A stretch of 64,000 nucleotides of DNA, taken from Bacillales bacterium (GTDB lineage: Bacteria; Bacillota_I; Bacilli_A; RF39; UBA660). The DNA lies in NCBI GenBank assembly GCA_016282375.1, contig JAEEKI010000014.1, positions 85,791-149,790 of the forward strand, in the 5' to 3' direction. The notes beneath the pieces are model-generated. The model was not told the DNA's origin, made no database searches, and saw nothing but the letters and a program-made list of their open reading frames with translations. The translations under genes and the position numbers were made by a program. Of the stretch, positions 26,425-50,719 are shown one piece after another. Each line of letters opens with the position of its first letter. The first letter of the stretch is position 1.

Positions 26425-27525
26425 CTATGGAGTTGATGGACCATCTAATGTGAAGCCAATGTTGAATGTTAAGAATGCACCAGATGCAGAAGTATCACAG
26501 TCGATATCTTGTCCTTCTATCCAGATATAAACCCGAATTTTTGTTACACCAGCACTTAATGATAAACCAATATCCATTGGATCACCTGTTCCTGATGAGA
26601 ATGCTGTATTAGTTCTCTTAATATTGCTACCTGTCATAGCAGTAAATACTGAACTGTTATCAGTAGCATTTGTATTAGGCCATGCTATTTCATTAGCATC
26701 TGAGATAGTTGTCTTAACTCCATCCCATGAAACCCAATCGTTACCACTACTATTAGCAGTTAATGATGCATATGTTGCATTAGCTACGGTACCATAAGTA
26801 TAATCTTGATAATACAAACGAGCTTGTTCAATACCGTATGCATTGTGTCCATCATAATTTGGTTCAACAATAATTGCACTACTTCCACCAGTATAACCTG
26901 CTAATGTTTTTGGATCAGTTGTTGCAGTATTATTACCTTCTACGATAAACGCATACCTAGCAGCATATTGAGCACCTTTATCAGCTTTCGTAGCTGTAAC
27001 AGTAGCACCAGAACCTGCATCTAAGTATACGGTTCCTGCTTCATCTAGTTTTAAGAAAATATCGAAGGCGATAAAATCACCAATTGTTGTTGATTTTGCT
27101 TCAGGTGATGCAACTGCTGTTAAGCCTAAAACGCCATCATTATTTTTATCTTCAATAGTTCCTTTAAACATTGCCATCTTTCCACTTGATATGGCACCTA
27201 CAGTAGATACTGGTACAAGATTAGTTAAACTGAACATATTTTCATCAACTAAGTCATTTGTATCATCGTTATCAGTTGTATCAAATGAATATCCTGTAGT
27301 TATATCACCATTAGAAATTAATGTCTTCCATGTATTTGCATCCGTCGAAATTTGGATACCACTACTCGTAGCAACGGTTACATTAATGGCATCAATAGTA
27401 ACATTTCTATTTGCCGTAAACCATGCATACGTTGATGTTGCTAACAAAATTATTGTCAGGAATAGCAGTAGCAGTAAAGAACCTAATTTTCTTTTCTTCT
27501 TTCCATTTTTCTTTTTAGAACTCAT
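26425..27525 (-). CDS. exported protein with SipW-cognate (TasA-like) N-terminus
   Basis: KKKRK-LLLLLFLTIILLATSTYAWFTAN. C-terminal motif IRVYIWIEGQDIDCD is shared with the upstream gene. Confidence 0.65.
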   Translation of the reverse strand: MSSKKKNGKKKRKLGSLLLLLFLTIILLATSTYAWFTANRNVTIDAINVTVATSSGIQISTDANTWKTLISNGDITTGYSFDTTDNDDTNDLVDENMFSLTNLVPVSTVGAISSGKMAMFKGTIEDKNNDGVLGLTAVASPEAKSTTIGDFIAFDIFLKLDEAGTVYLDAGSGATVTATKADKGAQYAARYAFIVEGNNTATTDPKTLAGYTGGSSAIIVEPNYDGHNAYGIEQARLYYQDYTYGTVANATYASLTANSSGNDWVSWDGVKTTISDANEIAWPNTNATDNSSVFTAMTGSNIKRTNTAFSSGTGDPMDIGLSLSAGVTKIRVYIWIEGQDIDCDTSASGAFLTFNIGFTLDGPSTP

Positions 27526-27545: not shown

Positions 27546-28253
27546 CTATTTCGTATTTATATGTTCTTCAGTGACTTTCATGTGCATCTTTAATTGACCA
27601 CCAACTAAAGCATCAACACAATCCGGGTCATCACCCTCAATCCATATAACTACAGTAATTTTATCAAATTCACCCGGAGCCAAATTCTTACGCACTTCGC
27701 TAATTATGGTTCCGTCCTCTTTAGGTTTAAAACCGATAGTATCTTTTTCTGGCTGTCCATCCATGTGGTTTACTTTGGCATAAATCTTTTTATCATCGTT
27801 AACAAAAATCATTACTCTTATTGCTTCATCAACATCTTTAACGACATCATCTTCAATCATTTCATACCAGTAATTAAAGACTGTATCGCTTTGATTCTCA
27901 ACATAGAATGTGTAAGCTATGTAATTATCACCATTATGGGAACCTTCTGCTTCATCATTGATATTATCAGGAATCCAACGAATAGATATGTTATCCATAA
28001 ATTGGAGATTTTCCGCTGATAATCTTCTTTTAGGCGTTGGATCTTTTTGGGATTCATAAATAGCCATACCACTTTCTAATTGTTTGTTGTCTTTGATACT
28101 AACATAAAAACTACCATTGTTCATTTTAAATCCTAGTACGATATAAACACCAAACATCAGAATTAATAAAAGTAAAATTGCTAGTTTAAGTTTTCTACCA
28201 AAACTCTGCCACCATTTGACTTTCGAGGCAGTTACAATGACATCTTTAGCCAC
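27546..28253 (-). CDS. membrane-anchored paralogue of the 26425-27525 product
   Basis: One TM helix (LAILLLLILMFGVYIVLGF). C-terminus ITVVIWIEGDDPDCVD parallels IWIEGQDIDCD. GTG start with GGGAG RBS. Confidence 0.55.
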   Translation of the reverse strand: MAKDVIVTASKVKWWQSFGRKLKLAILLLLILMFGVYIVLGFKMNNGSFYVSIKDNKQLESGMAIYESQKDPTPKRRLSAENLQFMDNISIRWIPDNINDEAEGSHNGDNYIAYTFYVENQSDTVFNYWYEMIEDDVVKDVDEAIRVMIFVNDDKKIYAKVNHMDGQPEKDTIGFKPKEDGTIISEVRKNLAPGEFDKITVVIWIEGDDPDCVDALVGGQLKMHMKVTEEHINTK

Positions 28254-28470: not shown

Positions 28471-29049
28471 ATGAGATATGGTAGAAAAATTGCTATATTC
28501 GCTGCTTTGATAGCCATGTTTTATTGTGTCTCATTGATTCAATCCACCTATGCTAAATACGTAACAAGCGCTGTTGGAACAGCAAATATGACCTTTGCAA
28601 GATGGAATATTCTAGTTAACGATCAAGATGTTGTTAATAATTCTAATTTTAGTACTACTATTCTTCCAGACTTTACAGGAACTACTAATATTCGCAGTGG
28701 TGTCATTGCACCTACTTCTCAAGGCTCATTTGATATTGAATTGGATATGACTGATGTTGACGTTAGTTTAGATTATACCATCTCTGCTGCTGTATCATCC
28801 AGTAATACAGTTACCGATTTAAAAATTATAAGTTACACCATTGATAATGTTACTACTCAATATACCAATAGTATTACTAATCGTGTATTACTAAGTAGTA
28901 CTGATCGTGTTGTAACAGTAACCTTTAATGTTGAATGGGTTGAAGATGCTCAAGATGGTGCTGTCATGAACAATGCTGCTGATACCGCTGCTGCTACAAG
29001 TGGTGTAGCTGCTATTGATGTAAGTGTTAACTTTGTTCAAGTTAGATAA
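28471..29049 (+). CDS. small TasA/camelysin-like exported protein (SipW-type signal)
   Basis: FYCVSLIQSTYAKYVTS and GVIAPTSQGSFDIELD. Clear paralogue of 36900-37511. AAGGAGGAG RBS. Confidence 0.65.
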   Translation: MRYGRKIAIFAALIAMFYCVSLIQSTYAKYVTSAVGTANMTFARWNILVNDQDVVNNSNFSTTILPDFTGTTNIRSGVIAPTSQGSFDIELDMTDVDVSLDYTISAAVSSSNTVTDLKIISYTIDNVTTQYTNSITNRVLLSSTDRVVTVTFNVEWVEDAQDGAVMNNAADTAAATSGVAAIDVSVNFVQVR

Positions 29050-29066: not shown

Positions 29067-29654
29067 ATGATTACTTTTACCAAAGGTTATGAATTAACCA
29101 CCTCTTTAACTAATATAGTCATTTTTATAGTTAGTTTATATTCAGTACTAATGATTAAAAACAAAAAATGGAAACTGTTCTTTATTCTGATGTCAATTAA
29201 TTCCCTACTAGGAACCATTGTCCATGGTATTGAATTAAATAGTGTTTTAAAGGATGCTATATGGAATATACTCTCAATCCTCTTTGTCTTTACTATTAAT
29301 CTGTTCTTAAGCATTTTTATGAATATTAAAATGAAACACTTTATGTATTTATCTGTCATAACTAGCATCATTTTAATTGTTCTTTACTATTTGGATATGA
29401 ATTTCTTACTTGTTTATACTTTTTATGTATTATTAATCATTATCCTAAGTTTTTATAAAATTCTTAAAAGCAAATTAAATAATAAAAAATATTTTATTAT
29501 TGGTTACATAGTTCAAATTATTGGTGGTGTTTTGTTACTAATGAGAGTTCATCTAAACTATTTAAACTATAATGGTATCTATCATTTATTTATGGCTTTA
29601 ACCTTAGTATTCTTTTATCTAGGAGTTCAAGTGGATAAAGAAAAGAAAGAATAA
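29067..29654 (+). CDS. polytopic membrane protein (6-7 TM), unknown function
   Basis: Hydrophobic throughout. 17 nt downstream of the preceding gene. Confidence 0.55.
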   Translation: MITFTKGYELTTSLTNIVIFIVSLYSVLMIKNKKWKLFFILMSINSLLGTIVHGIELNSVLKDAIWNILSILFVFTINLFLSIFMNIKMKHFMYLSVITSIILIVLYYLDMNFLLVYTFYVLLIIILSFYKILKSKLNNKKYFIIGYIVQIIGGVLLLMRVHLNYLNYNGIYHLFMALTLVFFYLGVQVDKEKKE

Positions 29655-29689
29655 AAAAATATGTTAAGTTTTATTTAACATATTTTTTT
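29653..29689. terminator. bidirectional terminator between convergent genes
   Basis: AAAAAAATATGTTAA-loop-TTAACATATTTTTTT. Confidence 0.7.
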
Positions 29690-30434
29690 ATGGTTCCTCA
29701 GGTTCTTCAGGCTCATTAGGTTCAGGAGGATTATTTTGATTATTCTGGTTATTATTACTTTGACTAACATATATTTTTACTCTTAAAGTAATACTCGGCT
29801 CTAAAGGATAATCGGTGGCATATTCATAGGCTTTATTGCCCCAGTAGGTATCTTCTTCATCATCACCAGATTCAAAAGGCCATTGAACATTTACCGTAAA
29901 AATCGAAGAACTAGTTACATCATTAATGATCTCCGAAAGATTAGCTTGAGAAAGACTAAAAGTAATCGTAAAGGGATAATCTGTGGCCAACATCGTTTCT
30001 AATTCTGCGGATGTCATGTCATCTTGTTGCACTTGCTCATGATTATCAATTCTACCCTCTTCAGTAACATATTCTTCATCAAAGATACGCGCTTCCAAAA
30101 TATTATATGTAATACTGGCCGCTATTTCACTTTCATTAGCAATGGTTAAATTATCAACATAATTGCCCATACCAGGATATACTTCCGAAATGTTTACATT
30201 ATAGTAATCCGATAAAACTGTTTCACCAGATTGGAACAATACATTCCAAGCTCGAACGTGAGCATCAATACTACTTGATACTTTGTTTGAATAAACAAAC
30301 CAAGCATAAGTATTTCCTACCAATAATATTATTAAAAATACTATTTGATGAGGTTTAAGTACTTTCTTAAGGTTTTTAAGAATTATCTTTAGTTTCTTCT
30401 TGTTCTTGTTCATCTTCATCTTCCTCATCTTCAA
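29688..30434 (-). CDS. exported protein with SipW-cognate N-terminus and N/Q/P/E-rich tail
   Basis: IVFLIILLVGNTYAWFVYSN. The start is uncertain (TTG at 30434; ATGs at 30428, 30419 and 30413) and overlaps the end of the upstream peptidase-like gene. Confidence 0.6.
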   Translation of the reverse strand: MKMRKMKMNKNKKKLKIILKNLKKVLKPHQIVFLIILLVGNTYAWFVYSNKVSSSIDAHVRAWNVLFQSGETVLSDYYNVNISEVYPGMGNYVDNLTIANESEIAASITYNILEARIFDEEYVTEEGRIDNHEQVQQDDMTSAELETMLATDYPFTITFSLSQANLSEIINDVTSSSIFTVNVQWPFESGDDEEDTYWGNKAYEYATDYPLEPSITLRVKIYVSQSNNNQNNQNNPPEPNEPEEPEEP

Positions 30435-30978
30435 ATTTAATTTTTACGATTTGATAAGATGCATATAACCCTACGATTGTAAATAATGTATAGTATGAAT
30501 AGTTATTACTCATTAAACGACCAAAGTAACTAAAGACAACTGTTTTATAAAAAACTTTTCCATATATTTGGGAATAAGATATTTCAGGATCTTCGTATTC
30601 ATTCGAAGTACCTTTGGTAATGTAATAATAATCATCATTATCTTTTCTAATGGATAATATTTTGTGAGTTATTATTAAATCATTTAGATTACCCTTTTTA
30701 CCTAGATATGTTACATTATCTCCGACTTTTAATTCGGAAGCAGGAACTTCTTTAATAACAATAATATCTCCGATAGAATATTCCTCTTTCATTGATTCTG
30801 ATGCAACGCTAAAGACACGATATCCCATAATAGCTTTATTGTTGAAAAATTTTTGAATTAAGACAACACATAAAGCAATGAATAAAAAGATAGAAAAGAT
30901 AATCTTTACTACCTTCCATGATATATATAATGCTTTATTATTATCTAGTTTATCTTTTATTTCTTTTAATTTTCTCAT
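30376..30978 (-). CDS. SipW-like (S26B) signal peptidase paralogue, partly divergent
   Basis: VFSVASESMKEEYSIGDIIVIKE, ITHKI and ITKGTSNEYEDP align with the SipW motifs SGSMEP / HR / GDAN..D. N- and C-terminal TM helices, acidic tail. AGGAG RBS precedes the ATG at 30978, 1 nt after the upstream stop. Confidence 0.6.
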   Translation of the reverse strand: MRKLKEIKDKLDNNKALYISWKVVKIIFSIFLFIALCVVLIQKFFNNKAIMGYRVFSVASESMKEEYSIGDIIVIKEVPASELKVGDNVTYLGKKGNLNDLIITHKILSIRKDNDDYYYITKGTSNEYEDPEISYSQIYGKVFYKTVVFSYFGRLMSNNYSYYTLFTIVGLYASYQIVKIKFEDEEDEDEQEQEETKDNS

Positions 30979-30979
30979 T

Positions 30980-32110
30980 TTAACTCCTAAACTCGAAACT
31001 AACAATTTTACTAATGGTACTTTGAATTTTAACATTAAGTTTTTGTTGAATTTCTTCGATTGTGGCTTCCTTCTTATTACGAATAACCGCAATTTTATCG
31101 CCAATAACCTTTTGTAACTCTTCAAGTGGTAAGTCAGAATTGATTTCTACGATTTTCGTAATCATATTATTAGTAAGTGTTTCAACTAATTCTTTATTAT
31201 TATCTTGTTTAGCCGCTTTAGCATTATCTCCTAAACTATTAACAATTAAATAGTTTAATAAGAATACATCATCAAACATATTTTTAACAGTAACATTTTC
31301 TTTGATAGTGTTACTTGTTTTTGTTGTCTTATTACCATTATCAATATATGCTTGTAAATAATTCCATAATTTCATGGCATATTGAAAGTTGGTATTTTTT
31401 AAAATAAGATTTGTTTTCTTAATTGGCGGTGTTACTCTTGCTACGTTAGCTTTGTCTAGTAATTTAAAAACATCAGTTCTAGTTAAGTCTGAAACTTGCA
31501 ATTCAAGTTTATCAATTCTTTCTTCGACAGTTAAATCATTATTACGTCCATATTCAGATGATGTATTAGATTTCGAAGCCATCGAAACATTAATATCGAC
31601 TAATTCCGAACCCACTCTTGATGTGCCATGATATTCACTTTTCTTACTATCTTTAACAAAGGATTTAGTGATTAAATCCCTTTTCTTCATAGAAATAAAC
31701 ATTTGCATGTTTTTAATCAATGTATAAATTACTCTGTTTTCGTATGTATTATAGTTTTCATCTTTATTAATGTTTAAAATCTTCGAAGGTTTAACATCAC
31801 CGTTTTTCTCGATTTTTTGAATCATACTTGTATTACGAGCTAAATGTTTAATACTTTCAACGGTTACTCTTCGAGCTTTTTCAACATTAACAACTTCTTC
31901 TTCATTAATAATGAAACGGTTGGGGTTTCTTAAGATGTTATCAATATACATTACGGTACCTTCCATTAATTCCAACCATTCAAAATCAGCCTCAAAGGAT
32001 TCAACATTAGTACTTACAGTATATTCTGATTTAACACTATTGTTGAAAGAAGCAATTTTTCTAGCATCGGTTTTTGTATATAAGTCTAATACCTTTAATT
32101 CTTGATCCAT
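30980..32110 (-). CDS. McrC-N-terminal-like (DUF2357-like) partner protein with no recognisable nuclease
   Basis: NYNTYENRVIYTLIKNM resembles E. coli McrC NEDTLANRIIKSTLAIL. No PD-(D/E)xK motif found by eye. Helical/coiled C-terminus. Starts 10 nt after the McrB-like gene. Confidence 0.5.
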   Translation of the reverse strand: MDQELKVLDLYTKTDARKIASFNNSVKSEYTVSTNVESFEADFEWLELMEGTVMYIDNILRNPNRFIINEEEVVNVEKARRVTVESIKHLARNTSMIQKIEKNGDVKPSKILNINKDENYNTYENRVIYTLIKNMQMFISMKKRDLITKSFVKDSKKSEYHGTSRVGSELVDINVSMASKSNTSSEYGRNNDLTVEERIDKLELQVSDLTRTDVFKLLDKANVARVTPPIKKTNLILKNTNFQYAMKLWNYLQAYIDNGNKTTKTSNTIKENVTVKNMFDDVFLLNYLIVNSLGDNAKAAKQDNNKELVETLTNNMITKIVEINSDLPLEELQKVIGDKIAVIRNKKEATIEEIQQKLNVKIQSTISKIVSFEFRS

Positions 32111-32120: not shown

Positions 32121-33653
32121 CTAAGACATCTTCTTAAGTCTTAAAAGAGTTTCGATACATTCATGCATCGTATCTTTTCCAAACGTTTTATCCAAAAATT
32201 CAATAAAGCCATCAATTTCATCTCTAATGTAAGAAATGTTTAATTGTTCAAATTTTCTTAAAATCTTTTTAGCAATAAAGTAATCGACACCATCTAATTC
32301 ACTACCACCGCAAGCAACAAAGACAGGAACAAACTTTCTCATATGAGCAACAATACGGTTACCAAAAGCGATACGGAAATGAGATATTACATAATCATCC
32401 ATTTCATTAATTTTATTCAAAGTTTCTTCTTTGATTGGATTGGCTTCCATTGCTTCTTTAAATTTCTTATTTAAATATGTGAAATTAACATCTTGAGCAT
32501 CAACTTCTTGAGGTGTGAAAACTTTACCTTTATCGTTGATATCGATAGGCATAGCACGGTCATAAACTTTATCAGTTACCATGAATGTTGAGTCATCGTT
32601 ATTGATTGTACCAATGTACCATACATTTTCAGGAATTTTAATTTTACCATTTTTAAGTCTCTTAGGGTCACTCTTCCATGAAGAAGCAACAACTTCGATA
32701 ATCCATTCATCTTTGTTAGGCATTTCTAGAATGGATAGCATTTCGGCAAAATAATACTCAACTCTGGAGATGTTCATTTCATCTAGGATAATGGTATAAA
32801 TATCATCTGTATAACCTGCTTCATATAATACTTTTAAGATATCTGTTTCATTGAACTTCTTAGTAAATTCGTTAAAGTAACCAAATAGTTCAGAACGATC
32901 ACGCCATGATGGTTGAACGGAAGCAACACAAGAGTCATGCTTCAAAAATTTTCCCCATGCATAAGCAAGTGATGTTTTACCTGTACCAGAGATACCTTGT
33001 AGAATAACAAGTTTTGTACTGGCTAATGCTGCCACATATAATCTAATCATTTCTGTTGTATAATACAAACCTAATTTACTAGCAGCAAAATTTCTAAATA
33101 ATTCTACAAACTCTGGTAATTCAAAATTATTACCATATTCTTGAATTTTATAATTAGCATATGCTATATCAACATCATTAAGTTTTGAGAAACGAATATC
33201 TGTATTTTGATCAACAGAGTCTCCTTCTTGTGGTTCTCCACTTACTTCTTCTTGGTCTGTTTCATTAGGTTTTAATCCTAAATGTGATACTTTCATAGCT
33301 AAGATTTCTTCTTTTTCTTGAACTAAAGTAGCTACTTTATTATTTAAAGTAGATATTTCTTCTAACATAGATTCTTGTTCAACAAGCGTTTTTCTAAAAC
33401 GAACATATTTTCTTAATAAGAAAACAATAAATAAAATAACAGCACCAATAAGGACAACAAGAATAATCGCCGCAATGCCAAAAAGAACCCACTCCCCAAT
33501 TCCGAAGTCAGATTTATATTGCCCTACAATTTTTAAATAGTCCTTAAAGCCAAACATTTTCGCAAAACCATTAATAATTCCTAATAGAATAGCTTTAATT
33601 CCTGAAAAAAATTGGGCTAAAAAATCGTATAAGAATGTAAAAAATGTGCTCAT
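32121..33653 (-). CDS. membrane-anchored McrB-like AAA+ GTPase
   Basis: Two N-terminal hydrophobic segments and a coiled coil. Motifs LQGISGTGKTS, VQPSWRDRSELFGYF, IILDEMNISRVEYYFAEMLSILE and IGTINNDDSTFMVTDKVYDRA follow the McrB motif order. Confidence 0.7.
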   Translation of the reverse strand: MSTFFTFLYDFLAQFFSGIKAILLGIINGFAKMFGFKDYLKIVGQYKSDFGIGEWVLFGIAAIILVVLIGAVILFIVFLLRKYVRFRKTLVEQESMLEEISTLNNKVATLVQEKEEILAMKVSHLGLKPNETDQEEVSGEPQEGDSVDQNTDIRFSKLNDVDIAYANYKIQEYGNNFELPEFVELFRNFAASKLGLYYTTEMIRLYVAALASTKLVILQGISGTGKTSLAYAWGKFLKHDSCVASVQPSWRDRSELFGYFNEFTKKFNETDILKVLYEAGYTDDIYTIILDEMNISRVEYYFAEMLSILEMPNKDEWIIEVVASSWKSDPKRLKNGKIKIPENVWYIGTINNDDSTFMVTDKVYDRAMPIDINDKGKVFTPQEVDAQDVNFTYLNKKFKEAMEANPIKEETLNKINEMDDYVISHFRIAFGNRIVAHMRKFVPVFVACGGSELDGVDYFIAKKILRKFEQLNISYIRDEIDGFIEFLDKTFGKDTMHECIETLLRLKKMS

Positions 33654-33660
33654 AAACACC

Positions 33661-34620
33661 TCATTGACTAACTATTTTTGCTTTTATCCTATCACTATTC
33701 TCTATAACTATATCATAATATTCATATTTTTCATATACAAAAACATATGAAAAGATATCAAGTATAGGAATATTATTATCAAAACTCTCATCTAAGATAA
33801 GAGCAACATTAAAACCGTTTTTAATAAAATTAGTAATTTTTTCTTGATATTTCAAGTAAGTTTCATAATTAATCCGAAAATGAACTCGAGATTTAACTAC
33901 CCTATTATCGAGTACTAAAATATACTTGTTAATCTTCTTCTCTTTAGCAAATAAAGATTCAGGGAAATCAACAATATAGTTTTCATTGAAATTAAGTTCA
34001 ATAGTATTTTTTAAAATATAACCTGATAGCATTAAAAATAATAAGTACTGTTTATTTTCTAATACGGTACCGGTATTATAGGCTTTATCAATAGCCCAAT
34101 CACTAAAGATTGGTGATAATTTACAATTTTGATTAATATCTACTTTCTTAAGATTTCTAGCAACTCGTTTAAAACTTATATTGAAATTTTTATCTTCGAA
34201 AACTGCTAAAAAATCCTTCCTTACTTTAATGAAATTGCTAACTAAATCTTTTAATTCTTCTTTTTTATCTTCTCTTAGTGATATATCCTCTGCAATTGTA
34301 TTTATCAAAGATGTTAAGCTTACATATTCACAGCAATCATCAATATATAAAATATAACCAAATAAGGTAAATATTTCTTTAACTTCTTCTTCAACACGCA
34401 TATCTTGCTTAATAATTTCTTTTGCAAGATTTTTTAATTCAGTGTTTAATTTATTAATAAAACTATATCCCCGACTATATACACTATTATTATAGTATCT
34501 TACGTCAATATACTTTTCAATAAAGGGCATTAGTAATTTCTTATCATAATTATTACCTAAAATGATTCGATAATAATTCATAAGAAAATTTTCAAAATAT
34601 TTAATATAATTATCTATCAT
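33661..34620 (-). CDS. hypothetical cytoplasmic protein (319 aa)
   Basis: No TM helix or signal. Tightly coupled to both neighbours. The C-terminal ~90 aa (FRINYETY...GFNVALILDESFDNN...YVFV) faintly resemble a degenerate EAL domain, by eye only. Confidence 0.45.
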   Translation of the reverse strand: MIDNYIKYFENFLMNYYRIILGNNYDKKLLMPFIEKYIDVRYYNNSVYSRGYSFINKLNTELKNLAKEIIKQDMRVEEEVKEIFTLFGYILYIDDCCEYVSLTSLINTIAEDISLREDKKEELKDLVSNFIKVRKDFLAVFEDKNFNISFKRVARNLKKVDINQNCKLSPIFSDWAIDKAYNTGTVLENKQYLLFLMLSGYILKNTIELNFNENYIVDFPESLFAKEKKINKYILVLDNRVVKSRVHFRINYETYLKYQEKITNFIKNGFNVALILDESFDNNIPILDIFSYVFVYEKYEYYDIVIENSDRIKAKIVSQ

Positions 34621-41724: not shown

Positions 41725-41821
41725 CAGCTTTCAAATCTTCCAATGATTTTACAAACTGTAAGATAGTTTCATATAAATCAATTAGTTCTTTATCTGTTAG
41801 TTCTTTCATATTATGTACTCC

Positions 41822-44800
41822 CTACTTAATTATTATATATTTTTCTACGGTTCCAATCAATGAGGAATTATCATATAGCATGAAATCTAAACGATATGTA
41901 CCTGGTGTTAAATCATCTTTCATCGTTAGATTTAATGTAGTTGTAGCCGTAGGATTATTTAAAATCAAATATTCATTGGCATTAGCCGTTGCAAGGAAAG
42001 TATTGCTTACATAATCTGTAATATCAACTGCTTCATACTCTGTAGTGGTTTCCATATCATATTTTCGACGTAACATTTTAATCCTTATAGATGGATTAGT
42101 TAATCCAGAGTTATAACTAATTGTACATGTTACATTATTACTATTATTTAAGGTATAACCTGTGTCTTTATAAACAATCATATCTTTGTTGGCAATTTCA
42201 ACATCTAAACCATAGATTTCATTAACAATGTAAATTGGGAAATCAATATAATCAGATGTTTCAACACCATAATAGATACCATCTGGTGAACCAAAGGACT
42301 CTACTCTTAAAACATAATTACCAGTTGTAAAGCTTGATGTTCCCGTTTTTACTTTAATCCAAGTTTGAATATTACCTACGTGATCAGCAATTTTAATTCT
42401 CGTTGTACCATCAATACTTGGTGAATAATTAACTTCATTTATTTCGTAAGTTAACCCTAACATAGAAACCCCAGATACAACATTGCCTTGAGAATTGAAT
42501 AAAGTAAGTTTTAATCCTACTTTAGAATCAAACATATGTGTATCATAAATAACATTAGTACCAACAGATGATTGAGTATAATTAGTTTGTAAATTTAATG
42601 TTACAGTTTCACCACTATATATAGTATTACTACTGATAGTTCCATTAATATCAATGACGGCATCTAATCCATCATAGACATCATAGTACATATTAGCTTC
42701 TTGAATACCTAAAACACTGACAATAGTTTGATTATTACCATCTTGTAGTTCGAACAAAAGATAATTATCTAAAGAATCATCTTCGAATTCCGTGTCATCA
42801 AAATCAATAATAAAAATAAACTCTTCCTGGCAATAGTCACCAATTTGTCGGTAATACTCAGCATTTTTCAGGGCGTCATTATAGAGGACTCCACTGTTGA
42901 AAGCACCCATGACTTCAAACATTGACAAGTTATAAGATGCTTCACCATGGAATGATATTTGATTTTCAGCATTAGCTACTTCAGCAGCAGTTATAACATG
43001 ATAATAATACTTAGCATCATCCATACTTAAATCAATCATTGTAATTTTTGTATTTTCTGGCAAAGCAATATTTGATACTAAAGCTCGATGATATCCATTA
43101 CCATAAACATTTTGATCTTGAGCATATAGTGAGAAATATGCACTGATTGATGATTTTGAAGATATTTTTGTTGGTGAAGAAATAAATAAATCATATTTTC
43201 TACCCGCTGTTAAAGATGCTTCATAGTCGTTTGTGGTAAATAAGATACGCGAAATATTTACGTTAATGATTAATGTTTCAGGATCCGTCGTTAAATCATC
43301 AATTCGGCTAGTAACCCGTAACATTATTTGAATTGTTCCAATTGACCCCGCCGTTTGAATGTTTTTAGAGTGATATAAATAAAATTGTAACGATGGTACA
43401 TTGGTACTGTTTTCACCAACATAACTATGTAAACCTTGAATTTGTGGAGTGGTATTACTATAGAATGAGGTTGATCCAACTGTTAACCAACCTGAGTTAC
43501 TTGTTTCCATAGAAAGTCCAATTGTTTTATCTACAGTTGCTAGATTTGATGAAACTTTAGGAATAGAATTCTTACTAATTACTTGGACACCACTTTCCAA
43601 ACCTGTAAAGTCTACTCTCATGATTTCAAAAGTAGTATTTGGTACTGTATAATCGATTAATGGTAATTCCACAGCACCTAAAGTAGAATACTTAGATGCC
43701 ACTAAGTTTACTTCATATGTTTGAACATATTCACCAACAATCCACATGTACATTGGAGCATCTGCTGGTGTTGGTTCAATATACTTAACTGTGTTTACAC
43801 CTTCAGCATCGACAAAGTTACTATAGAATCCGTCAGCCGTAATATCATGATCCGTTTTATGTGCACCTAGAACATAAGAACCAGTTGTAAACATACCACT
43901 GTTTAGGTCAACATGATCACCATAGTCATAATCATCATAAATACCTACAACAACCGAGTTATTAGCACCATATTTAAATAGTCCAAAGAAAGTCATTCCA
44001 TAAACATTACCATATGATGATAATGTTTCATTAGCAATGTTTAAGACTTTGTTGTTGGCACCATACATATAAATACGATTATCAACATTCTTTTGAACAG
44101 TATGATTAGTATCATCAATTTCAACAGTTGCTAAAGCACCTGTTGAGGTTAAACTCTTATAGCTTTGAAGGGCATTAGCACCAGTTTCTAAGAATAATGT
44201 TGAATTATTTTTTAAATCTAATTCTTCGATAATAGATAATGTAAATAATACATCACTATATTCGTTTGTTCTATCGGTTGCTCCACTTAATGTTAAAGCA
44301 GAGTTATCAATAACTAAAAGGTCAGTTCTTTGAATGGAAACATTATGTTTTGGATTACTAAATGTTCCATAGTTTTTAATATTAATAGTACTTGTACCAG
44401 TTGTTGTTGAAGCATTACCACTTCCAAAAATAGAACCTAAAATATCAAAATTATTATAATTTAAGGCGTTAATGTTAACAGCAATTGAGGATGTTACACC
44501 GACGAAGTGCCAGTCGTAGTTTTCTGAACCGGAAGCGTTTGCTTCACCACCACCGAAGACTGTACCACGAATATCAACAGTCCCTCTTGTAGATTCAGCA
44601 GTCGTAGCAACATCAGCACCAATATCAACGGTAGTTCCGCCGTACACAACTGATGTATTAGCTCCACCATAAACATTACCATAGATTGTTGCACCAAGTA
44701 CTTTAACATTTGAATATGAATTATTAGTAACAGAATCACCTGTAAAGGCTGCATTTCCGCCACCAAATAATGAACATTGTGATTTAACTACGCAGCTAGC

Positions 44801-47800
44801 AGTTCCAATCGTTGTTGTACCACCAACAGTGATGTTGGTATTTCCTAAAACGGTCGCGTTAGATCCATTTCCACCACCATAGGCACTACCGTGAATAGTA
44901 CCATTATTTATTACAACATTGGTATTACCTGAAGTGGCACCATCATTTCCACCACCATAGGCATTAACATTAATTGTACCACCAAAGATTTTTAATGAAG
45001 TATTGTTGTTAACGGCCGCTAAATTACCGCCACCGTAAACACTATTAGAAATAGTTCCTGAATTAATAGTGACATTAGTACTACCAACCGCTGCTAAGTT
45101 ACCTCCACCATAAACGTTAGAAACTGTACTACCGCCAACTGTAACATTGGTTGTGGATGATACTCCACCAGCATTATTGCCACCATAAATATCCGTAATG
45201 GTTCCACCGTTAGTAGTGATATTTGTTGTAGTTACATTACCACTTTGATTTGAACCACCATAAATATTTGTAACAGTTCCAGTTGAAGAAGAAGGAAGTG
45301 TGACGTTTGTTGTTGTAGCTCCAGCACGATTACCACCACCATAAATATTGCTAGCAGTGCCGGCATTAACAGTTATGTTAGTCGCACCAACAGATGCTAA
45401 ATTACCACCACCGAAGATATTGGTTAAAGAACCACCATCAATTGTAACGTTGGTTGTGGATGATACCCCACCTTGATTATTACCACCATAAACGTTTGTA
45501 ACAGTTCCACCAGCGACATTTGTGTTAGTTGTCGTTACATTACCACTTTGGTTAGATCCACCATAGATATTTGTTATAACAACATTGGCTGTTGATGGAA
45601 CGGTAATATGTGTCGTTGTAGCTCCGGCTTGATTTCCACCACCATAGACTGCTGATAAAGTATTAGAGACATTATTAATAGTTACATATGTATCACCATT
45701 AACGTTACCAGCGTTTCCACCACCAAAGACAGAACCGTTTATTGTACCGTTATTTATTTCAACAGTTGTATCATTGGCAATCGCGGCTTGGTTACCTCCA
45801 CCGTAAATTGTGTTAAATGTACCACCGTTAATTGTTACATCAGCATCGCCACCAACATTACCGGCATTTCCACCGCCAAAAACCGTATTAGTTACTGTTC
45901 CATTATTAATTTCAACATTTGTATCATTGGTAATCGCAGCTTGGTTACCTCCACCATAGATTGTATTAAATGTTCCACCATTAACTGTAATATTTGTATC
46001 GTCACTGACAGCTACATTACCTCCACCATAAGCGGTTGTAATTGTTCCGCCATTGACAATAATATTTGTTTCAACCGTTTTACCACCAGCATTATTACCA
46101 CCGTATAATGTCGTAATAGTACCTTTATCAACGGTGACATTAGAGGTACTAACATTACCACTTTGATTTGAACCACCGTAAAGATTTGTAACAACGATAT
46201 TGTTGCTTCCACTTCTTGTATGTAAATCGACATTAGTTGTCGTAGCACCGGCATTATTACCTCCACCATAAATGGCTGTAATGGTGCCAGTATGATTATA
46301 TACATCAATATTAGTCGTTGTTGTACTAACTAAGTTACCTCCGCCATAGATAGTTCCGATTGAACCACCCGTAACTTCAACATTAGTTGTACCGCAAGTA
46401 CCACCTTCGTTATTACCACCATAAACGGTCGTGGCACTACCCGAAGATATATTAACATTAGCCGTTGTTACACTACCCGATGTATTTGAACCACCATAAA
46501 CATTGGTTGTCGTAGCACCAGATAAATAAACATGTGTCGTTGTAACAGAAGATTTATTTCCACCACCAAAGACATCAGTTATAGTTCCACCATTTAGATG
46601 AACTTCGTTTTGCTTAGTATGACTACCAGCTTGGTCATGACCACCAAAGACTTTACCTACGGTTCCACCATTAACGGTTACATTAATATTTCCATTAACG
46701 ATAGGTGTATGGGTACTTTCTCCTTGACCACCACCAAAGACACTATTGGTTATGGTTCCTTTATTAACCGTAACACTTACATTGCCACGATTGGTAGCAT
46801 TAACACTACCAAAAGCACTACCACCATAAACACTACCATTGATTGTCGGTCCCGTACTGGCATCACCAATTGTGACAGTAACACCATTAGTGGTAAATGT
46901 ACCATCTGTCGCTGGGTCATCAGGTGTAGCCGGTTCAGCTCCACCTTTACCGCCACCATAGACATTACCGGTTATGGTTCCACCAGTTACAGCAACATCA
47001 ATATTGCCATAAATCGTACCATGCCGATTAGAACCGCCATAGATATTACCAATAGTTCCACCGCTTACATCTATATCAATTAAACTTGAAGTTTGATAGT
47101 TAGATACGCCAAAATCAGCAGAGCGGCTTCCACCATAGATACTACCAACATTTCCTGAGAAAACTTCAATTTTAGCAGTTGAGGTATTGTTATAAACTGT
47201 TCCGGTTGAACCATAGTTACCACCACCATAAACAGCAGTATTAATAGTTCCACCATTGATAATAACATGAGAATTATAAACGGTTCCTTTTTCAGTTGAC
47301 GATGTATCACCACCACCAGCACCAAAGACCGTTCCAGATTCAACGCCATATAATTTACCAGTTCCGCCACCAACAGTGACATTTCCACCAACATATACTA
47401 GAGTTGATCCTTGAAGGACACCGTCGTCAGTATATCCAGATTCAAAACTATTTGAACCGCCAAGAACACTATAAGTTACTGTTCCGCCAGTTACACATAT
47501 TATACGATTACCTTTTGTTGTCGAGTGACCAGCACCACCATAAATTGATCTTACCGTTCCACCACTCATCCCTATAAAGGTTGAGTTTGTCGTTGCCGAA
47601 CCATTATATCCATAACCACCAACAATCGTGTTGATATTTCCGCCTTCGATTTTCGCACCGGTAATTGAGTTGGCATATGTTGATGCTCTAGCCCCAATAT
47701 ATAGGCCGGCTGTATCATCCGTATTTGGTGTATCATCATAGTTATAACCAAAAGTTCCACTCTTTACGATGTTATATGACATGAATATTGATGCACTACC

Positions 47801-50719
47801 AGCCGTATTATTACCACCTGCATAACCATCAAGACCTATTCCAAAAAATAGTTTCTTATTGCTATTGGCTACCCGGTCATAATCACTACCGAAAATAGTT
47901 GTTTCATTAAAAGTATAACTAGTCGTAGAACTACTCATCCTACCACTATGGTAGGCAAAATAGTTTCCGCTTTCAATAATTACTCTAAATAATCCCGATG
48001 GACTTGAGCCATAAGCACCACCATAGATACCACCAACCGAAAGATAAGATGCCCCATCGTAAGGAGTAACATTTCGACCTATCTTAAAGTTATGGGAACT
48101 TACAAATATGCCACCATAACTAGTGTAGTTAGTTGAATCATAACCTAACGCATAATTCTTATTGCCATCATTATTTAAATTAGTATTTGGTCCATCAATT
48201 CGAATGTTTTCAATTCTAATATCACCCGGTATTGTCCATCTTGAAGTATTAATCGTTATCGTTCCACTAGCTGTTGTACCATTAATAGATGTTCCTGTGA
48301 GAGTATATGGTCTATTCGTATTTAAATTTGAATAACTTACAGTACCAGTTATCCGCACGATATTCATGTCTCTCGTAACTAAGTAGTAATAGTTTTCTCC
48401 ACCTATTACTTCATTATTAGCATCTTCCTCGATAATAGATATACTATTACCATTGCTTTTAAGCATTTCATCATTGTAATGAATTAATTTATAAGCTGTT
48501 GTACAACCACTTGTACTCGTACATAATGTTCCAGATGCATTATAATACATTCCCGTTTGAATCATTGCGGAAGTTGGATTACTTACTTTATAAAAATAGC
48601 CTTGGGTATCATTACCAGTTGGTATATATGATTTTTGTCTTTGAACAGTTTCATTATATGTATATTGACCATCTGGATCATCTAAAAGTTCCATGTAAGT
48701 CGTATTATAAGTATTAATCGTTGTTTCAGTATTACTGTTAGTAGGTCGAAAATTAGCAATAAAGGTTACTGACCCACCGTTATATTTTGTTCCGGCAACA
48801 ATAGCCGTAGTATTAGGCGAAAAAACATAACAGGTTGTATTCCGCCTACATCTTGTTCGGCTAGAATTGTAGTAATATGTTCCACTGTTTCGATTCGTAC
48901 GATAAAAACTACCAGCAGGCATGTAACCATCTTGGTCATCACCTCTAACATATTGACGGACAAATTCCATTTGCGTATAGTTTTGTCGCCAAAAATAACT
49001 CGCATGATGAACTATTATTTCTGGTACTGTATATCCTGTTGATACCATCGTCATCGAATTTAAATCCGTAATGTCATAATAAGAAGTTACAACATTCGCT
49101 TCATACCAAGTAGCATTTAAATGAATTACGACTTCACTACCACCATCAATTGGTACTTGCATGTATCTTGTATAATCATCGGTATTAAGACTAAACTTAG
49201 CTGCATCACATACACCAGTAGTCGTATCCTCTTCTTGATTACATACCCAGCCATTAAAACCATATTCTACAGGATTTACATAAGGTCTTTTGCTAAATGG
49301 ATTATCAATAAGTTCAATATTGATATAATTATTACCATCACTATCTGTGGCAAGGGTTCCATTACTGTTTCTTTCTAATGGATAATATTTAAAATAAACA
49401 TATTTATAAGAGTTTTCACTATTGATTGGTGATACTCTTCCTACCAAGGATGAATTATTAATATCCGTTCCATCAAATATTAGTTCAACTTTAACTAAAT
49501 ACTCTGGATCATAATAATGTGTGCTATTACCACTAGGAAGACTAGTATTTCTAACTTCTGTATAATTAAGACCCGTTAAATAATTTAAATCACTTGTTAA
49601 ATCATTAACATAGACAATATTATTTGCTATACCACTAGCGTGTTCATTAATTGTACTTCGTTTAGTACCACCCTTCGGAGCATTAACTTTTTTTTGAGCA
49701 TCAACACCATTATTAATAATTCTAAATTCTCCGTTGTCATATTTCCAAACTAAATCACTGTTATCATTAAAGGATTTAACAACATATTCTAAATCTCTTT
49801 GATTATTAAAAATAATATCATCTTTTTCAATACTATATTCGTAAATATCATACTTTTGTGTATAATCAAATTCATCGACTAAAGAAAGATTACTTGATTC
49901 AAACATAATATTTTTAAGACTACTACCATTAAATTTATCTAATAAAATATTGGTGCTTTCAATATTACTATTACCTGAAATATTAATATTTTCAATGTTA
50001 TTTGCACCATTATCATTAAGAATAAACAAAGATGATTTTAATAAATCTTTATCACCATTATATGCTATTTCAACATTGCTAAGATTAATATTTGTAAGAT
50101 TACTTTCTTCAACCTCTCTAAATAAACTGGCATCAATATTAACAAGAGCATTTTCTATTTCAGATGGTTCTTCATTTTCGTCTTCTTTTTTGACTTCTTC
50201 ATTACTTGGAGTAAGCATTTTATCATTAACATCTAAAGTAATATCTTTAAAATTAATGTTTTTAATTTCAGCATTATATAACGAAGATAGTAAACTAAAA
50301 CTAGCTGATTTATCTTCTAAATCAGTGTAATAACTACTAATCTTAAAATTAGATATGGTATATCCTCCACCATTTAGTGTCCCACTGAATTGTTTATTAT
50401 CACTCGCAAAGAAAAATTCTTGGCCATTAAGATCAATATTATTATCTATTTCATAATACTTATTAAAGTAATCAGATGAATTATCACCATTTATAAGTTG
50501 AAAGAAATATGCTAGTTCACTACCATCTTTAATGATATAGGGATTATCACTGGTTCCATTACCACTAGCAAAAGATTTAGCAATTGTTCCATCCCATATA
50601 GATGAAGTTCTTTTTTCTGAATAAGTAATTTTAGATGCAAACCAAAACGAAAGAAGAATGACTAGCACTCCCGTTAATAGTATTATCTTTTTATAATGCT
50701 TTTTTACTACTTTCTTCAT
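41822..50719 (-). CDS. giant (2965 aa) N-terminally anchored surface protein with ~1000-aa YGG(G/S)N beta-helix repeat core
   Basis: Single 8.9-kb ORF. N-terminal TM helix. GNGTSDNPYIIKDG...FSGTLNGGGYTISNF head module. Tens of ~20-aa repeats (TNIYGGSNQSGNV...). Ig-like C-terminal third. No LPXTG motif. Confidence 0.85.
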   Translation of the reverse strand: MKKVVKKHYKKIILLTGVLVILLSFWFASKITYSEKRTSSIWDGTIAKSFASGNGTSDNPYIIKDGSELAYFFQLINGDNSSDYFNKYYEIDNNIDLNGQEFFFASDNKQFSGTLNGGGYTISNFKISSYYTDLEDKSASFSLLSSLYNAEIKNINFKDITLDVNDKMLTPSNEEVKKEDENEEPSEIENALVNIDASLFREVEESNLTNINLSNVEIAYNGDKDLLKSSLFILNDNGANNIENINISGNSNIESTNILLDKFNGSSLKNIMFESSNLSLVDEFDYTQKYDIYEYSIEKDDIIFNNQRDLEYVVKSFNDNSDLVWKYDNGEFRIINNGVDAQKKVNAPKGGTKRSTINEHASGIANNIVYVNDLTSDLNYLTGLNYTEVRNTSLPSGNSTHYYDPEYLVKVELIFDGTDINNSSLVGRVSPINSENSYKYVYFKYYPLERNSNGTLATDSDGNNYINIELIDNPFSKRPYVNPVEYGFNGWVCNQEEDTTTGVCDAAKFSLNTDDYTRYMQVPIDGGSEVVIHLNATWYEANVVTSYYDITDLNSMTMVSTGYTVPEIIVHHASYFWRQNYTQMEFVRQYVRGDDQDGYMPAGSFYRTNRNSGTYYYNSSRTRCRRNTTCYVFSPNTTAIVAGTKYNGGSVTFIANFRPTNSNTETTINTYNTTYMELLDDPDGQYTYNETVQRQKSYIPTGNDTQGYFYKVSNPTSAMIQTGMYYNASGTLCTSTSGCTTAYKLIHYNDEMLKSNGNSISIIEEDANNEVIGGENYYYLVTRDMNIVRITGTVSYSNLNTNRPYTLTGTSINGTTASGTITINTSRWTIPGDIRIENIRIDGPNTNLNNDGNKNYALGYDSTNYTSYGGIFVSSHNFKIGRNVTPYDGASYLSVGGIYGGAYGSSPSGLFRVIIESGNYFAYHSGRMSSSTTSYTFNETTIFGSDYDRVANSNKKLFFGIGLDGYAGGNNTAGSASIFMSYNIVKSGTFGYNYDDTPNTDDTAGLYIGARASTYANSITGAKIEGGNINTIVGGYGYNGSATTNSTFIGMSGGTVRSIYGGAGHSTTKGNRIICVTGGTVTYSVLGGSNSFESGYTDDGVLQGSTLVYVGGNVTVGGGTGKLYGVESGTVFGAGGGDTSSTEKGTVYNSHVIINGGTINTAVYGGGNYGSTGTVYNNTSTAKIEVFSGNVGSIYGGSRSADFGVSNYQTSSLIDIDVSGGTIGNIYGGSNRHGTIYGNIDVAVTGGTITGNVYGGGKGGAEPATPDDPATDGTFTTNGVTVTIGDASTGPTINGSVYGGSAFGSVNATNRGNVSVTVNKGTITNSVFGGGQGESTHTPIVNGNINVTVNGGTVGKVFGGHDQAGSHTKQNEVHLNGGTITDVFGGGNKSSVTTTHVYLSGATTTNVYGGSNTSGSVTTANVNISSGSATTVYGGNNEGGTCGTTNVEVTGGSIGTIYGGGNLVSTTTTNIDVYNHTGTITAIYGGGNNAGATTTNVDLHTRSGSNNIVVTNLYGGSNQSGNVSTSNVTVDKGTITTLYGGNNAGGKTVETNIIVNGGTITTAYGGGNVAVSDDTNITVNGGTFNTIYGGGNQAAITNDTNVEINNGTVTNTVFGGGNAGNVGGDADVTINGGTFNTIYGGGNQAAIANDTTVEINNGTINGSVFGGGNAGNVNGDTYVTINNVSNTLSAVYGGGNQAGATTTHITVPSTANVVITNIYGGSNQSGNVTTTNTNVAGGTVTNVYGGNNQGGVSSTTNVTIDGGSLTNIFGGGNLASVGATNITVNAGTASNIYGGGNRAGATTTNVTLPSSSTGTVTNIYGGSNQSGNVTTTNITTNGGTITDIYGGNNAGGVSSTTNVTVGGSTVSNVYGGGNLAAVGSTNVTINSGTISNSVYGGGNLAAVNNNTSLKIFGGTINVNAYGGGNDGATSGNTNVVINNGTIHGSAYGGGNGSNATVLGNTNITVGGTTTIGTASCVVKSQCSLFGGGNAAFTGDSVTNNSYSNVKVLGATIYGNVYGGANTSVVYGGTTVDIGADVATTAESTRGTVDIRGTVFGGGEANASGSENYDWHFVGVTSSIAVNINALNYNNFDILGSIFGSGNASTTTGTSTINIKNYGTFSNPKHNVSIQRTDLLVIDNSALTLSGATDRTNEYSDVLFTLSIIEELDLKNNSTLFLETGANALQSYKSLTSTGALATVEIDDTNHTVQKNVDNRIYMYGANNKVLNIANETLSSYGNVYGMTFFGLFKYGANNSVVVGIYDDYDYGDHVDLNSGMFTTGSYVLGAHKTDHDITADGFYSNFVDAEGVNTVKYIEPTPADAPMYMWIVGEYVQTYEVNLVASKYSTLGAVELPLIDYTVPNTTFEIMRVDFTGLESGVQVISKNSIPKVSSNLATVDKTIGLSMETSNSGWLTVGSTSFYSNTTPQIQGLHSYVGENSTNVPSLQFYLYHSKNIQTAGSIGTIQIMLRVTSRIDDLTTDPETLIINVNISRILFTTNDYEASLTAGRKYDLFISSPTKISSKSSISAYFSLYAQDQNVYGNGYHRALVSNIALPENTKITMIDLSMDDAKYYYHVITAAEVANAENQISFHGEASYNLSMFEVMGAFNSGVLYNDALKNAEYYRQIGDYCQEEFIFIIDFDDTEFEDDSLDNYLLFELQDGNNQTIVSVLGIQEANMYYDVYDGLDAVIDINGTISSNTIYSGETVTLNLQTNYTQSSVGTNVIYDTHMFDSKVGLKLTLFNSQGNVVSGVSMLGLTYEINEVNYSPSIDGTTRIKIADHVGNIQTWIKVKTGTSSFTTGNYVLRVESFGSPDGIYYGVETSDYIDFPIYIVNEIYGLDVEIANKDMIVYKDTGYTLNNSNNVTCTISYNSGLTNPSIRIKMLRRKYDMETTTEYEAVDITDYVSNTFLATANANEYLILNNPTATTTLNLTMKDDLTPGTYRLDFMLYDNSSLIGTVEKYIIIK
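44400..47600 (-). repeat. coding tandem repeats (~60-66 nt period, YGG(G/S)N units) inside the giant gene
   Basis: Visible periodicity of ccaccaccata/ccaccgccaaa motifs. Many alternative-frame ORFs in the track arise here. Confidence 0.8.
45677..45982 (-). repeat. recent 2 x 153-nt tandem duplication within the repeat core
   Basis: The protein reads NGGTFNTIYGGGNQAAITNDTNVEINNGT... and then NGGTFNTIYGGGNQAAIANDTTVEINNGT... exactly 51 aa later. Confidence 0.8.

Follow-up and report, generated by a model that had tools for sequence, protein, structure and literature searches.

A conserved gene cluster of leader-bearing secreted proteins, SipW-type peptidases and an McrB-like GTPase that probably builds a cell-surface structure in uncultured Bacilli

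The window analyzed here, a stretch of 64,000 nucleotides (nt) from a Bacillales bacterium (assembly GCA_016282375.1, contig JAEEKI010000014.1, positions 85,791 to 149,790), carries at 26.4-50.7 kb a gene cluster that, on balance, is likely to build a multi-subunit cell-surface structure, either a filament or a coat, in an uncultured, low-G+C, reduced-genome member of the Bacilli. The cluster comprises 18 open reading frames (ORFs) of at least 150 amino acids (aa), here named A to R, of which 16 lie on the minus strand, and it is read in the order R, a 34-aa ORF, Q-P-O-N-M-L-K-J-I-H-G-F-E, then C-D on the opposite strand and finally B-A. Between Q and E the genes mostly overlap or stand 0-13 nt apart, the exceptions being K-J (36 nt) and O-N (111 nt), and R is separated from the 34-aa ORF by 12 nt. 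A profile search with A, covering one genome per species of the Genome Taxonomy Database, gave 458 confirmed loci, 80 of which were kept for comparison, and all counts below over 80 related loci refer to this subset. The 80 loci all come from metagenome-assembled genomes of uncultured gut, rumen or digester bacteria, labeled as Bacilli, Mollicutes, Tenericutes, Erysipelotrichaceae, or Clostridium sp. CAG:1193 and CAG:609. An initial annotation, made from the letters of the sequence, had described the cluster as an envelope locus of about nine TasA-like exported proteins with three SipW-like peptidases; the ORFs do lie at the coordinates it gave, and its observation is largely real, its interpretation half right.

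The leader motif and the SipW-type peptidases

Seven proteins of the cluster, A, C, E, J, K, M and O, have a basic N-terminus and a single transmembrane (TM) helix that ends in the motif [TS][YFL][AGS]x[YF], which reads TYAWF in A and E, TYAFF in O, TYAKY in C, TYSRY in K, SFAVY in M and TFSKY in J. Across the 80 related loci, the motif is found at the end of the TM helix in 78 of 80 A proteins, 13 of 20 C, 13 of 17 E, 11 of 19 J, 12 of 23 K and 18 of 22 M, against a background of 3 in 129 unrelated (unlabeled) ORFs with an N-terminal TM helix in the same loci. The peptidase and GTPase families hardly carry it (0/22 for F, 1/54 for L and 0/19 for H), and B, F, L, N and H each contribute at most one member. 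This frequency is far beyond chance, and chance is excluded as its source. Each family has its own form of the motif: TYAWFT in A, N.yAWFiY in E, TYAKYvTS in C, TYA/G.fES in M, T.SrYeS in K and fgrYv in J, that of A being invariant in 41 sequences which are 45-78% identical to the window protein. Nine proteins had been credited with a motif like the TasA cleavage region, and for these seven the claim stands; the remaining two, B and R, possess the TM anchor alone, the motif occurring in none of 67 B homologues and, absent from R of the window, in 10 of 48 homologues of R.

The pattern gives a predicted cleavage site, T-[YF]-[ASG]|x-[YF], that parallels the G-T-W-A|A-F of TasA, with Thr or Ser at P3, an aromatic residue at P2, a small one at P1 and again an aromatic one at P2'. 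In TasA, the aromatic residues at P2 and P2' are reported to hamper processing by the ordinary peptidase LepB, and the protein is cleaved by a dedicated one, SipW (PMC10269814). The motif of this cluster thus appears to extend the substrate logic of SipW-type peptidases, with aromatic residues at both positions, past the TasA family. Cleavage would leave the predicted new N-termini WFTANR... in A and KYVTSAVGTANMTFAR in C.

The peptidases themselves stand beside these proteins. L (36191..36886, minus strand) and F (30376..30978, minus strand; the ORF extends to 31125, with Met50 as the likely start) score 84.3 and 72.9 bits, respectively, on TIGR02228, the model of signal peptidase I of the endoplasmic reticulum (ER)/archaeal type, whose curated cut-off is 51.85 bits. 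The start proposed for F may be compared with its orthologue in a closely related locus (L082), which has 198 aa and begins 1 nt after G. In the alignment of the L family, the Ser, His and Asp are all kept and the SM, THR and GDxN blocks are intact; in the F family Ser and His are kept and the Asp position is occupied by T, V or I. The third protein, N (37512..38081, minus strand), is a degenerate SipW-like membrane protein that weakly matches the C-terminal part of the Bacillus SipW model (17.1 bits, the cut-off being 190) but not TIGR02228, and in its family the Ser is not conserved and the His is absent. The equivalence of catalytic residues to those of Bacillus subtilis SipW is based on the conserved SM, THR and GDxN blocks. 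By their scores, L and F are SipW-type signal peptidases next to proteins with a common leader, and N, which appears to have lost both the catalytic Ser and His, is probably a pseudo-peptidase, so that of the three SipW-like peptidases first counted two hold.

Among the leader-bearing proteins, A (26425..27525, minus strand) is predicted to be a secreted protein of 366 aa, in which a leader invariant in the family (...TSTYA|WFTAN) is followed by a compact beta-rich domain, as judged from the alignment and an AlphaFold model. It is the probable major subunit; a separate promoter region and terminator serve it, and its family is large and uniform, with 3602 clusters at 50% identity (E<=1e-3). 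Its neighbor B (27546..28253, minus strand), which adjoins A in 68 of 81 loci, is in the family alignment a type II membrane-anchored protein without the cleavage motif and with a conserved cytoplasmic N-terminus, and is a candidate for the membrane base or anchor of A. Both proteins end in a common motif, W.EG[QD]D.[DE]C (residues 335-343 of A and 204-212 of B), which holds the sole Cys in 76 of 82 members of the A family and 58 of 68 of the B family and might serve to bind a metal or as a contact between subunits.

The other leader-bearing proteins, assigned from the TM helix and the motif together with alignments or models, would be further secreted proteins. C (28471..29049, plus strand), of 192 aa with the leader TYA|KY, is a predicted beta-sandwich protein that is encoded on the opposite strand wherever it is found beside B, with a second, same-strand copy in two loci. 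E (29688..30434, minus strand; 248 aa, leader TYA|WF) is the final gene of the long operon; J (34629..35561, minus strand) has 310 aa and the leader TFS|KY; K (35598..36191, minus strand; 197 aa, leader TYS|RY) is a distant paralogue of C, M and J; and M (36900..37511, minus strand; 203 aa, leader SFA|VY) is a beta-sandwich paralogue of C by hhalign and AlphaFold. The paralogy reaches beyond the leader, with hhalign probabilities of 99.9% for C-M, 94% for C-K, 92% for J-K (147 columns) and 91% for M-E (164 columns), over a range of 84-183 columns, and A has the leader alone in common with C, M, K, E and J. O (38193..39371, minus strand; the ORF runs to 39449, the likely start being Met27) is an additional, lineage-specific substrate whose leader reads TYAFF; it has 10 Cys and a Cys-rich region toward the C-terminus.

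In scans with Pfam, NCBIfam and PADLOC, the proteins A, B, C, E, I, J, M, O and Q stayed without annotation (A, B, C, E, J, M and O lacking any Pfam family), and K and R had only sub-cut-off, chance-level matches. Sequence searches of the Protein Data Bank (PDB) with A and C, and profile searches with the family alignments of A, C/M, Q and I, returned nothing significant.

The GTPase module, the giant protein R and conserved gene order

The most conserved gene of the cluster is H (32121..33659, minus strand), which encodes a 512-aa McrB-like AAA+ GTPase predicted to be membrane-anchored, with a hydrophobic N-terminus, a TM helix at residues 64-82, a coiled-coil-like segment and the GTPase domain. 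It matches the NCBIfam McrB model (8.2e-06) and the PADLOC candidate PDC-M26A (1.2e-36), and in a profile search of the PDB its sole match was Escherichia coli McrB (3.8e-04 to 6.3e-04), over the Walker A, Walker B and signature region. The conserved segment past the TM helix is heptad-like (LVEQESMLEE..LNNKVA.LV.EKE.ILAMK), and the invariant TINNDDS (N353 N354 D355 D356) fits either NxD or NxxD, HMMER pairing N353...D356 with the N-T-A-D of McrB. FtsB/DivIC was not detected at the N-terminus of H by a Pfam hmmscan, and FtsL appeared with an E-value of 0.02 in one homologue. At least 8000 candidate homologues of H exist, the best 120 of which are 71-91% identical over nearly the full length; those with names are few and are labeled 'hypothetical protein'. 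The AAA+ domain is nearly invariant across lineages, a stretch such as LQGISGTGKTSLAYAWGKF being identical in 22 sequences, and because of this near-invariance the constraint on H suggests a housekeeping-like role.

Located 10 nt downstream of H and kept in 19 loci, G (30980..32110, minus strand) is a McrC homologue that consists of DUF2357 alone (Pfam, 32 bits against a cut-off of 23.3), with no Pfam nuclease domain; in the alignment, its C-terminal half shows no acidic/Lys triad that is conserved. By sequence, H and G thus constitute a membrane-anchored McrB-like GTPase and its nuclease-less McrC partner. Directly upstream of H there is always I (33661..34620, minus strand), a 319-aa cytoplasmic protein without a Pfam or PDB match. 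Since the H/G/I genes keep their synteny and no gene is better conserved than H, the module is read as an integral and strongly constrained part of the cluster, not as a chance insertion of a defense system. Like E. coli McrBC, it has an AAA+ GTPase core in H and the McrB-activating DUF2357 in G; it differs in the TM helix and coiled-coil-like segment that H carries in place of the DNA-binding N-domain, in the lack of the PD-(D/E)xK nuclease in G, in its very strong sequence conservation and in its position within a secretion/assembly operon. The B. subtilis tapA-sipW-tasA operon, taken by the initial annotation as the paradigm of the locus, does not cover it because of the H-G pair, a GTPase/McrC core that had been overlooked; the count of two cytoplasmic proteins was likewise too low, as there are four (G, H, I and Q) together with the conserved 34-aa ORF.

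A survey of McrBC systems (Bell et al., eLife 2024, PMC11090510) names, in three sentences and without a component list, a large clade called CoCoPALM, whose GTPase carries a fused FtsB-like TM and coiled-coil domain and whose McrB and McrC homologues usually both contain coiled coils; the label links McrBC to pilus assembly, the authors used HHpred, and the analysis of the clade was deferred to a later paper. A search of one literature library found no follow-up paper on CoCoPALM, and the text supplements of that survey do not mention it. CoCoPALM and the cluster described here share a McrB-like GTPase with an N-terminal TM helix, followed here by a coiled-coil-like segment, a DUF2357 McrC homologue, an association with signal peptidases and an occurrence in Bacillota. 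As regards the peptidases, F overlaps or abuts G, and L and N precede H by 3-5 genes, an arrangement repeated in about 18 other genomes. We therefore regard the locus as a well-preserved example of this named but uncharacterized class. New with respect to that survey are the set of seven substrate families in which the leader T-[YF]-[ASG]|x-[YF] recurs, the pairing of B with A, the giant R, the proteins Q and I, the 34-aa ORF, the apparently dead peptidase N and a minimal form of the cluster, B-A-q-Q-L-R, in which q stands for the 34-aa ORF.

The giant protein R (41822..50719, minus strand), which was one of the two looser relatives of the supposed TasA-like set, is a surface protein of 2965 aa with an N-terminal TM anchor, a conserved WDG..GNG..NPY head and beta-rich domains at its C-terminus. 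Its residues 899-2055 form about 34 Gly-rich beta-solenoid turns, with 34 [YF]GG[GSNA] units at a period of 24-27 aa, and it has no Pfam family. The G+C content, about 28% for the window, rises to 0.37-0.40 at 44000-48000 from about 0.28 elsewhere because of these Gly-rich repeats, and not because of foreign DNA. Homologues of R are present in 57 of 81 loci, beside A or Q, and measure 1350-3243 aa, several being cut by the edge of the locus. Between R and Q, directly upstream of Q and overlapping its start, lies the 34-aa ORF (MKELTDKELIDLYETILQFVKSLEDLKAGVNNDK; 41705..41809, minus strand), which is 76% identical in L082 and was found by tblastn immediately before Q in at least 20 loci, in both the R-q-Q and A-q-Q orders; it probably represents a genuine small protein of the system. 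Q itself (40240..41724, minus strand), a 494-aa cytoplasmic, Lys-rich helical protein without a TM helix or a Pfam or PDB match, is present in 62 loci and is a core component kept even in the minimal cluster. For I and Q, no relatives with a known function were detected.

About 20 loci from species-level genomes, in which A is 36-43% identical to that of the window, carry the extended 15-gene order N-M-L-K-J-I-H-G-F-E-C-B-A-Q-R or a permuted one such as R-Q-N-M-L-K-A-N'-J-I-H-G-F-E-C. Over 18 extended loci, the median identity to the window orthologue is highest for H (69%, range 65-76%), followed by B (50%), L (44%), G (43%), R (42%), F (41%), A and J (39% each), C (37%), E (35%), N and M (34% each), K (30%), I (28%) and Q (27.5%). 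About 45 other loci (for example L013, L016, L017, L019, L022, L024 and L026) have the minimal form B-A-q-Q-L-R, with no H/G/I and no minor subunits within 10 kb, and their sole SipW-type peptidase is prolonged at the C-terminus by a helical, cytoplasmic stretch of about 250 aa (for example L026:4449-5678). L082 and all other loci examined lack O and D, which look like lineage-specific additions to a conserved cluster.

Proposed assembly and alternative readings

The assembly of a surface structure may be pictured in four steps, the first two of which draw on the motif and on what is known of TasA and SipW. The seven precursors A, C, E, J, K, M and O would be inserted via the Sec pathway by an N-in signal-anchor, and L and F would then cut after T-[YF]-[A/S/G], a site that ordinary signal peptidase would handle poorly, while the dead paralogue N may hold or present precursors. 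By analogy with the donor strand of TasA, the freed beta-sandwich subunits could polymerize via their conserved new N-termini, with A as the major subunit, C, M, K, J and E as minor subunits, B as the uncleaved membrane base and the beta-solenoid giant R as an attached fibril or adhesin. Finally, as synteny suggests, the H-G pair with the cytoplasmic I, Q and 34-aa protein may provide GTP-dependent force or control for assembly. A surface assembly of this kind agrees with the pilus-assembly label of CoCoPALM (PMC11090510), and the idea of a multi-component fiber or sheath, already put forward in the initial annotation, is plausible in that light.

Several observations weigh against this proposal. 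The components are known from genes alone and their carriers are uncultured. The TM helix of A is near-invariant, which is unusual for a discarded signal peptide, so that it could be retained, cleavage being predicted from sequence. Homology to the TasA family or to a known pilin does not rise above threshold, the Foldseek matches are generic, and in the monomer models of A and M no N-terminal segment folds back on the domain. In about 45 loci no H/G lies within 10 kb of B-A-q-Q-L-R, so that A and R may be able to do without the GTPase. In addition, H resembles a defense candidate of PADLOC and the locus abuts a defense island in this genome.

A more specific form of the proposal, which we put forward tentatively and hold to be rather doubtful, is that of a new class of filament machine whose subunits would be matured by ER/archaeal-type peptidases and assembled or extracted under a hexameric McrB-like GTPase with a McrC-like activator. 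A restriction motor would then have been exapted for the envelope, giving an analogue of the type IV pilus without common ancestry that would be widespread in uncultured gut and rumen Bacilli with reduced genomes, some of them possibly peptidoglycan-free. With type IV pili, archaella and Tad pili the cluster shares several pilin-like paralogues with a hydrophobic helix, a membrane peptidase, a cytoplasmic nucleoside triphosphatase (NTPase) and a membrane platform in one operon; unlike in those systems, the cut is predicted after the helix, there is no G|F...E5 signal, PilB/PilT or PilC, and the AAA+ protein belongs to another clade. A true type IV pilus, Tad or archaellum locus was rejected, as no class III signal, A24 prepilin peptidase or PilB-type ATPase was found in the Pfam/NCBIfam scans of the locus proteins. 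If the proposal is true, a restriction-enzyme GTPase has been recruited for a surface structure, by a route distinct from the sortase, chaperone-usher, type IV, curli and plain TasA routes, in a system that is abundant in uncultured gut and rumen Bacilli, hosts whose envelope biology is barely known. The predicted cleavage motif, major subunit, membrane anchor and motor are parts that can be tested, and they provide a component list for the CoCoPALM class.

An expanded TasA/camelysin-type system, in which the substrates would be divergent TasA-family jelly-rolls forming a fiber by donor-strand exchange and the GTPase genes would be incidental, was the sense of the initial annotation and now seems unlikely. 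Its peptidase-substrate logic and cleavage-site pattern survive: SipW-type peptidases stand beside their presumed substrates, and the cleavage-site pattern and beta-sandwich mature domains are shared with B. subtilis tapA-sipW-tasA, Bacillus cereus sipW-calY and Clostridium perfringens sipW-bsaABC, with B as a possible counterpart of the anchor/nucleator TapA. Remote TasA relatives of the BsaA type are, moreover, reported to be widespread (PMC11580942). What did not survive is membership in the TasA family. With the TasA/BsaA/camelysin models (NF046066, TIGR04089, TIGR04090 and those of Pfam, Peptidase_M73 included), no substrate gave a match at E<=0.01 (Pfam) or E<=0.1 (NCBIfam), although genuine TasA, as positive control, reached 513.8, 21.2 and 16.7 bits on NF046066, TIGR04090 and TIGR04089, respectively. 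On TIGR04088, the model of the SipW-cognate signal (cut-off 19 bits), genuine TasA scored 38 bits and A 11.1 bits (E-value 0.35), and the other eight N-termini gave no match, so that none of the signal and family models named in the initial annotation is reached by any substrate. Within the A family, TIGR04088 was nevertheless the commonest sub-threshold NCBIfam match (7 of 41 members at E<=1, the best at 0.0027), a faint yet consistent echo of a SipW-cognate signal that speaks in favor of this alternative. The comparison of each substrate family with TasA by hhalign stayed below 4% probability, a weak test given the single TasA sequence, and the PDB profile searches were empty.

Structure prediction leads to the same result. 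The AlphaFold model of A (mean predicted local distance difference test, pLDDT, 87; predicted template modeling score, pTM, 0.85) comprises the TM helix, a low-confidence linker at residues 27-40 that spans the motif and a compact beta-rich domain, and that of M (pLDDT 78) an eight-stranded beta-sandwich with a low-confidence linker at residues 32-42; in both, the linker covers the motif and/or the residues directly after it. A Foldseek search with the A model against the PDB and BFVD (viral predicted structures) found no match at E<=0.001, the best in the PDB being CBM6/35 with a probability of at most 0.23, and the matches listed for the M model include PliG, the pilins EcpA (E. coli common pilus) and FimG, the ColG collagen-binding domain and C-CPE; neither model has TasA among its 50 listed matches. 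As modeled, the folds of A and M are generic beta-sandwiches or jelly-rolls in which the TasA fold proposed earlier is not recognized. The disordered segment that precedes these domains is compatible with donor-strand exchange, the donor strand of TasA being residues 28-38 (PMC9674648), but would not be diagnostic of it. Compared with TasA, CalY and BsaA, the substrates of the locus thus lack detectable sequence similarity or specific fold similarity, and the locus also differs from TasA-type operons, which have one peptidase and two or three substrates, in its two predicted active peptidases and one apparently dead one with at least seven substrates, in the NTPase module H/G/I and the 2965-aa giant, and in having no connection with sporulation or a Bacillus-type cell wall. 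Moreover, the synteny of H/G/I and the conservation of H indicate that these genes are not incidental.

Also improbable, in our estimation, is an uncleaved, membrane-tethered coat, surface layer or wall substitute in putatively peptidoglycan-poor Bacilli, with the SipW-like proteins processing some of its members. It would account for the near-invariant TM helix of A and for B as an uncleaved anchor with a related C-terminus. The labels of the host clade (Mollicutes, Tenericutes or Bacilli) would fit it as well, as would the related orders RF39, RFN20 and ML615J-28, which are reported to include peptidoglycan-deficient species (PMC10868615). Set against it are the small P1 and P3 residues, as a peptidase site requires, the co-conservation of the motif with two peptidases that appear catalytically intact, and the predicted lack of structure in the motif and post-motif linker, by which it would be accessible to a peptidase.

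A conflict or defense system, with H-G sensing or acting on invading nucleic acid or phage and the secreted proteins serving as effectors, decoys or receptor-masking surface proteins, is given little credence here. The match of H to PDC-M26A points in this direction, McrBC relatives are mostly restriction systems, CoCoPALM came from a census of such systems (PMC11090510), and GmrSD, DpnII, AIPR, Mrr and helicase genes adjoin the locus in the window. However, G lacks a conserved nuclease motif and H has a TM helix instead of a DNA-binding domain; H is kept at 65-76% identity, together with the gene order, where the structural genes are 27-50% identical, which is atypical of fast-evolving and patchy defense genes; the flanks of the locus differ in other genomes; and G, I and Q have no PADLOC match. 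An insertion of a canonical McrBC restriction system was rejected for the lack of a nuclease and the conserved synteny, as was a sortase pilus, since the locus proteins contain no LPxT[GAS], NPxTG or LAxTG and no sortase family appeared in the Pfam scans of them.

Accessory genes, regulatory sites and flanking DNA

Two further membrane proteins of the cluster were rightly recognized in the initial annotation and are confirmed by Pfam. P (39455..40237, minus strand), which is also present in L082, combines an N-terminal TM helix with a DUF4097 (toastrack, LiaG-like) ectodomain (Pfam 1.6e-05, NCBIfam LiaG 3e-11), and D (29067..29654, plus strand) is a 7-TM protein of family DUF6962 (Pfam 2.5e-20) that is window-specific and probably lies outside the core system.

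The promoter-like site and the two hairpins reported earlier are likewise present. An extended -10 site matching the consensus, TGTTATAAT, lies at 50741..50749 on the minus strand, 22 nt 5' of the start codon of R, and probably marks where the R-to-E operon begins. A perfect A+T-rich hairpin of 13 bp with flanking A and T runs (29655..29687), which separates the convergent stop codons of D and E, would probably serve as a bidirectional terminator, and a perfect 10-bp hairpin (AAACAAGTTA / TAACTTGTTT; 26383-26410) with a T run (together 26378..26410, minus strand), 15 nt past the stop codon of A, is the probable intrinsic terminator that closes the locus. A terminator scan of 26-30 kb listed none; the scan demands G+C-rich stems, and both hairpins are A+T-rich. 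As TGTTATAAT precedes R, one hairpin separates D from E and the other closes A, the sequence suggests three transcription units, R to E, C-D and B-A.

Past the terminator of A, a 574-nt leader (25851-26424, minus strand) extends to the next gene. It contains a near-consensus promoter-like site, TTGACA-18-TATAGT with TG (26338-26309), as well as, roughly 65 nt ahead of the GTG start, a hairpin and T run (about 25914-25949), and it has no Rfam match; it may be an attenuator or a novel cis-regulatory RNA. The genes that follow directly downstream of A constitute a defense/DNA-conflict island (window 5740-25850, minus strand) with GmrSD (8698-10791), a DpnII endonuclease (10802-11659), two methylases (11652-12434 and 14202-15059), AIPR (12443-14188), a PIF1-like helicase (15283-16908), a NERD+HRDC protein (17353-18363), a UvrD-like helicase (18421-20682), Mrr_cat (20745-21143), a DUF2201 metallopeptidase/VWA protein (21161-22792) and an 880-aa protein with a weak match to the RsgA GTPase (23208-25850).

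The upstream boundary of the locus is marked by a region with an S-adenosylmethionine (SAM) riboswitch (RF00162, 65.7 bits, 52441-52524, minus strand), located upstream of an ORF of 260 aa (51535-52317) that matches the N-terminal domain of S-adenosylmethionine synthetase alone. The next ORF (50786-51490) has no Pfam match, and the region of 51535-52317 may represent a split or atypical metK.

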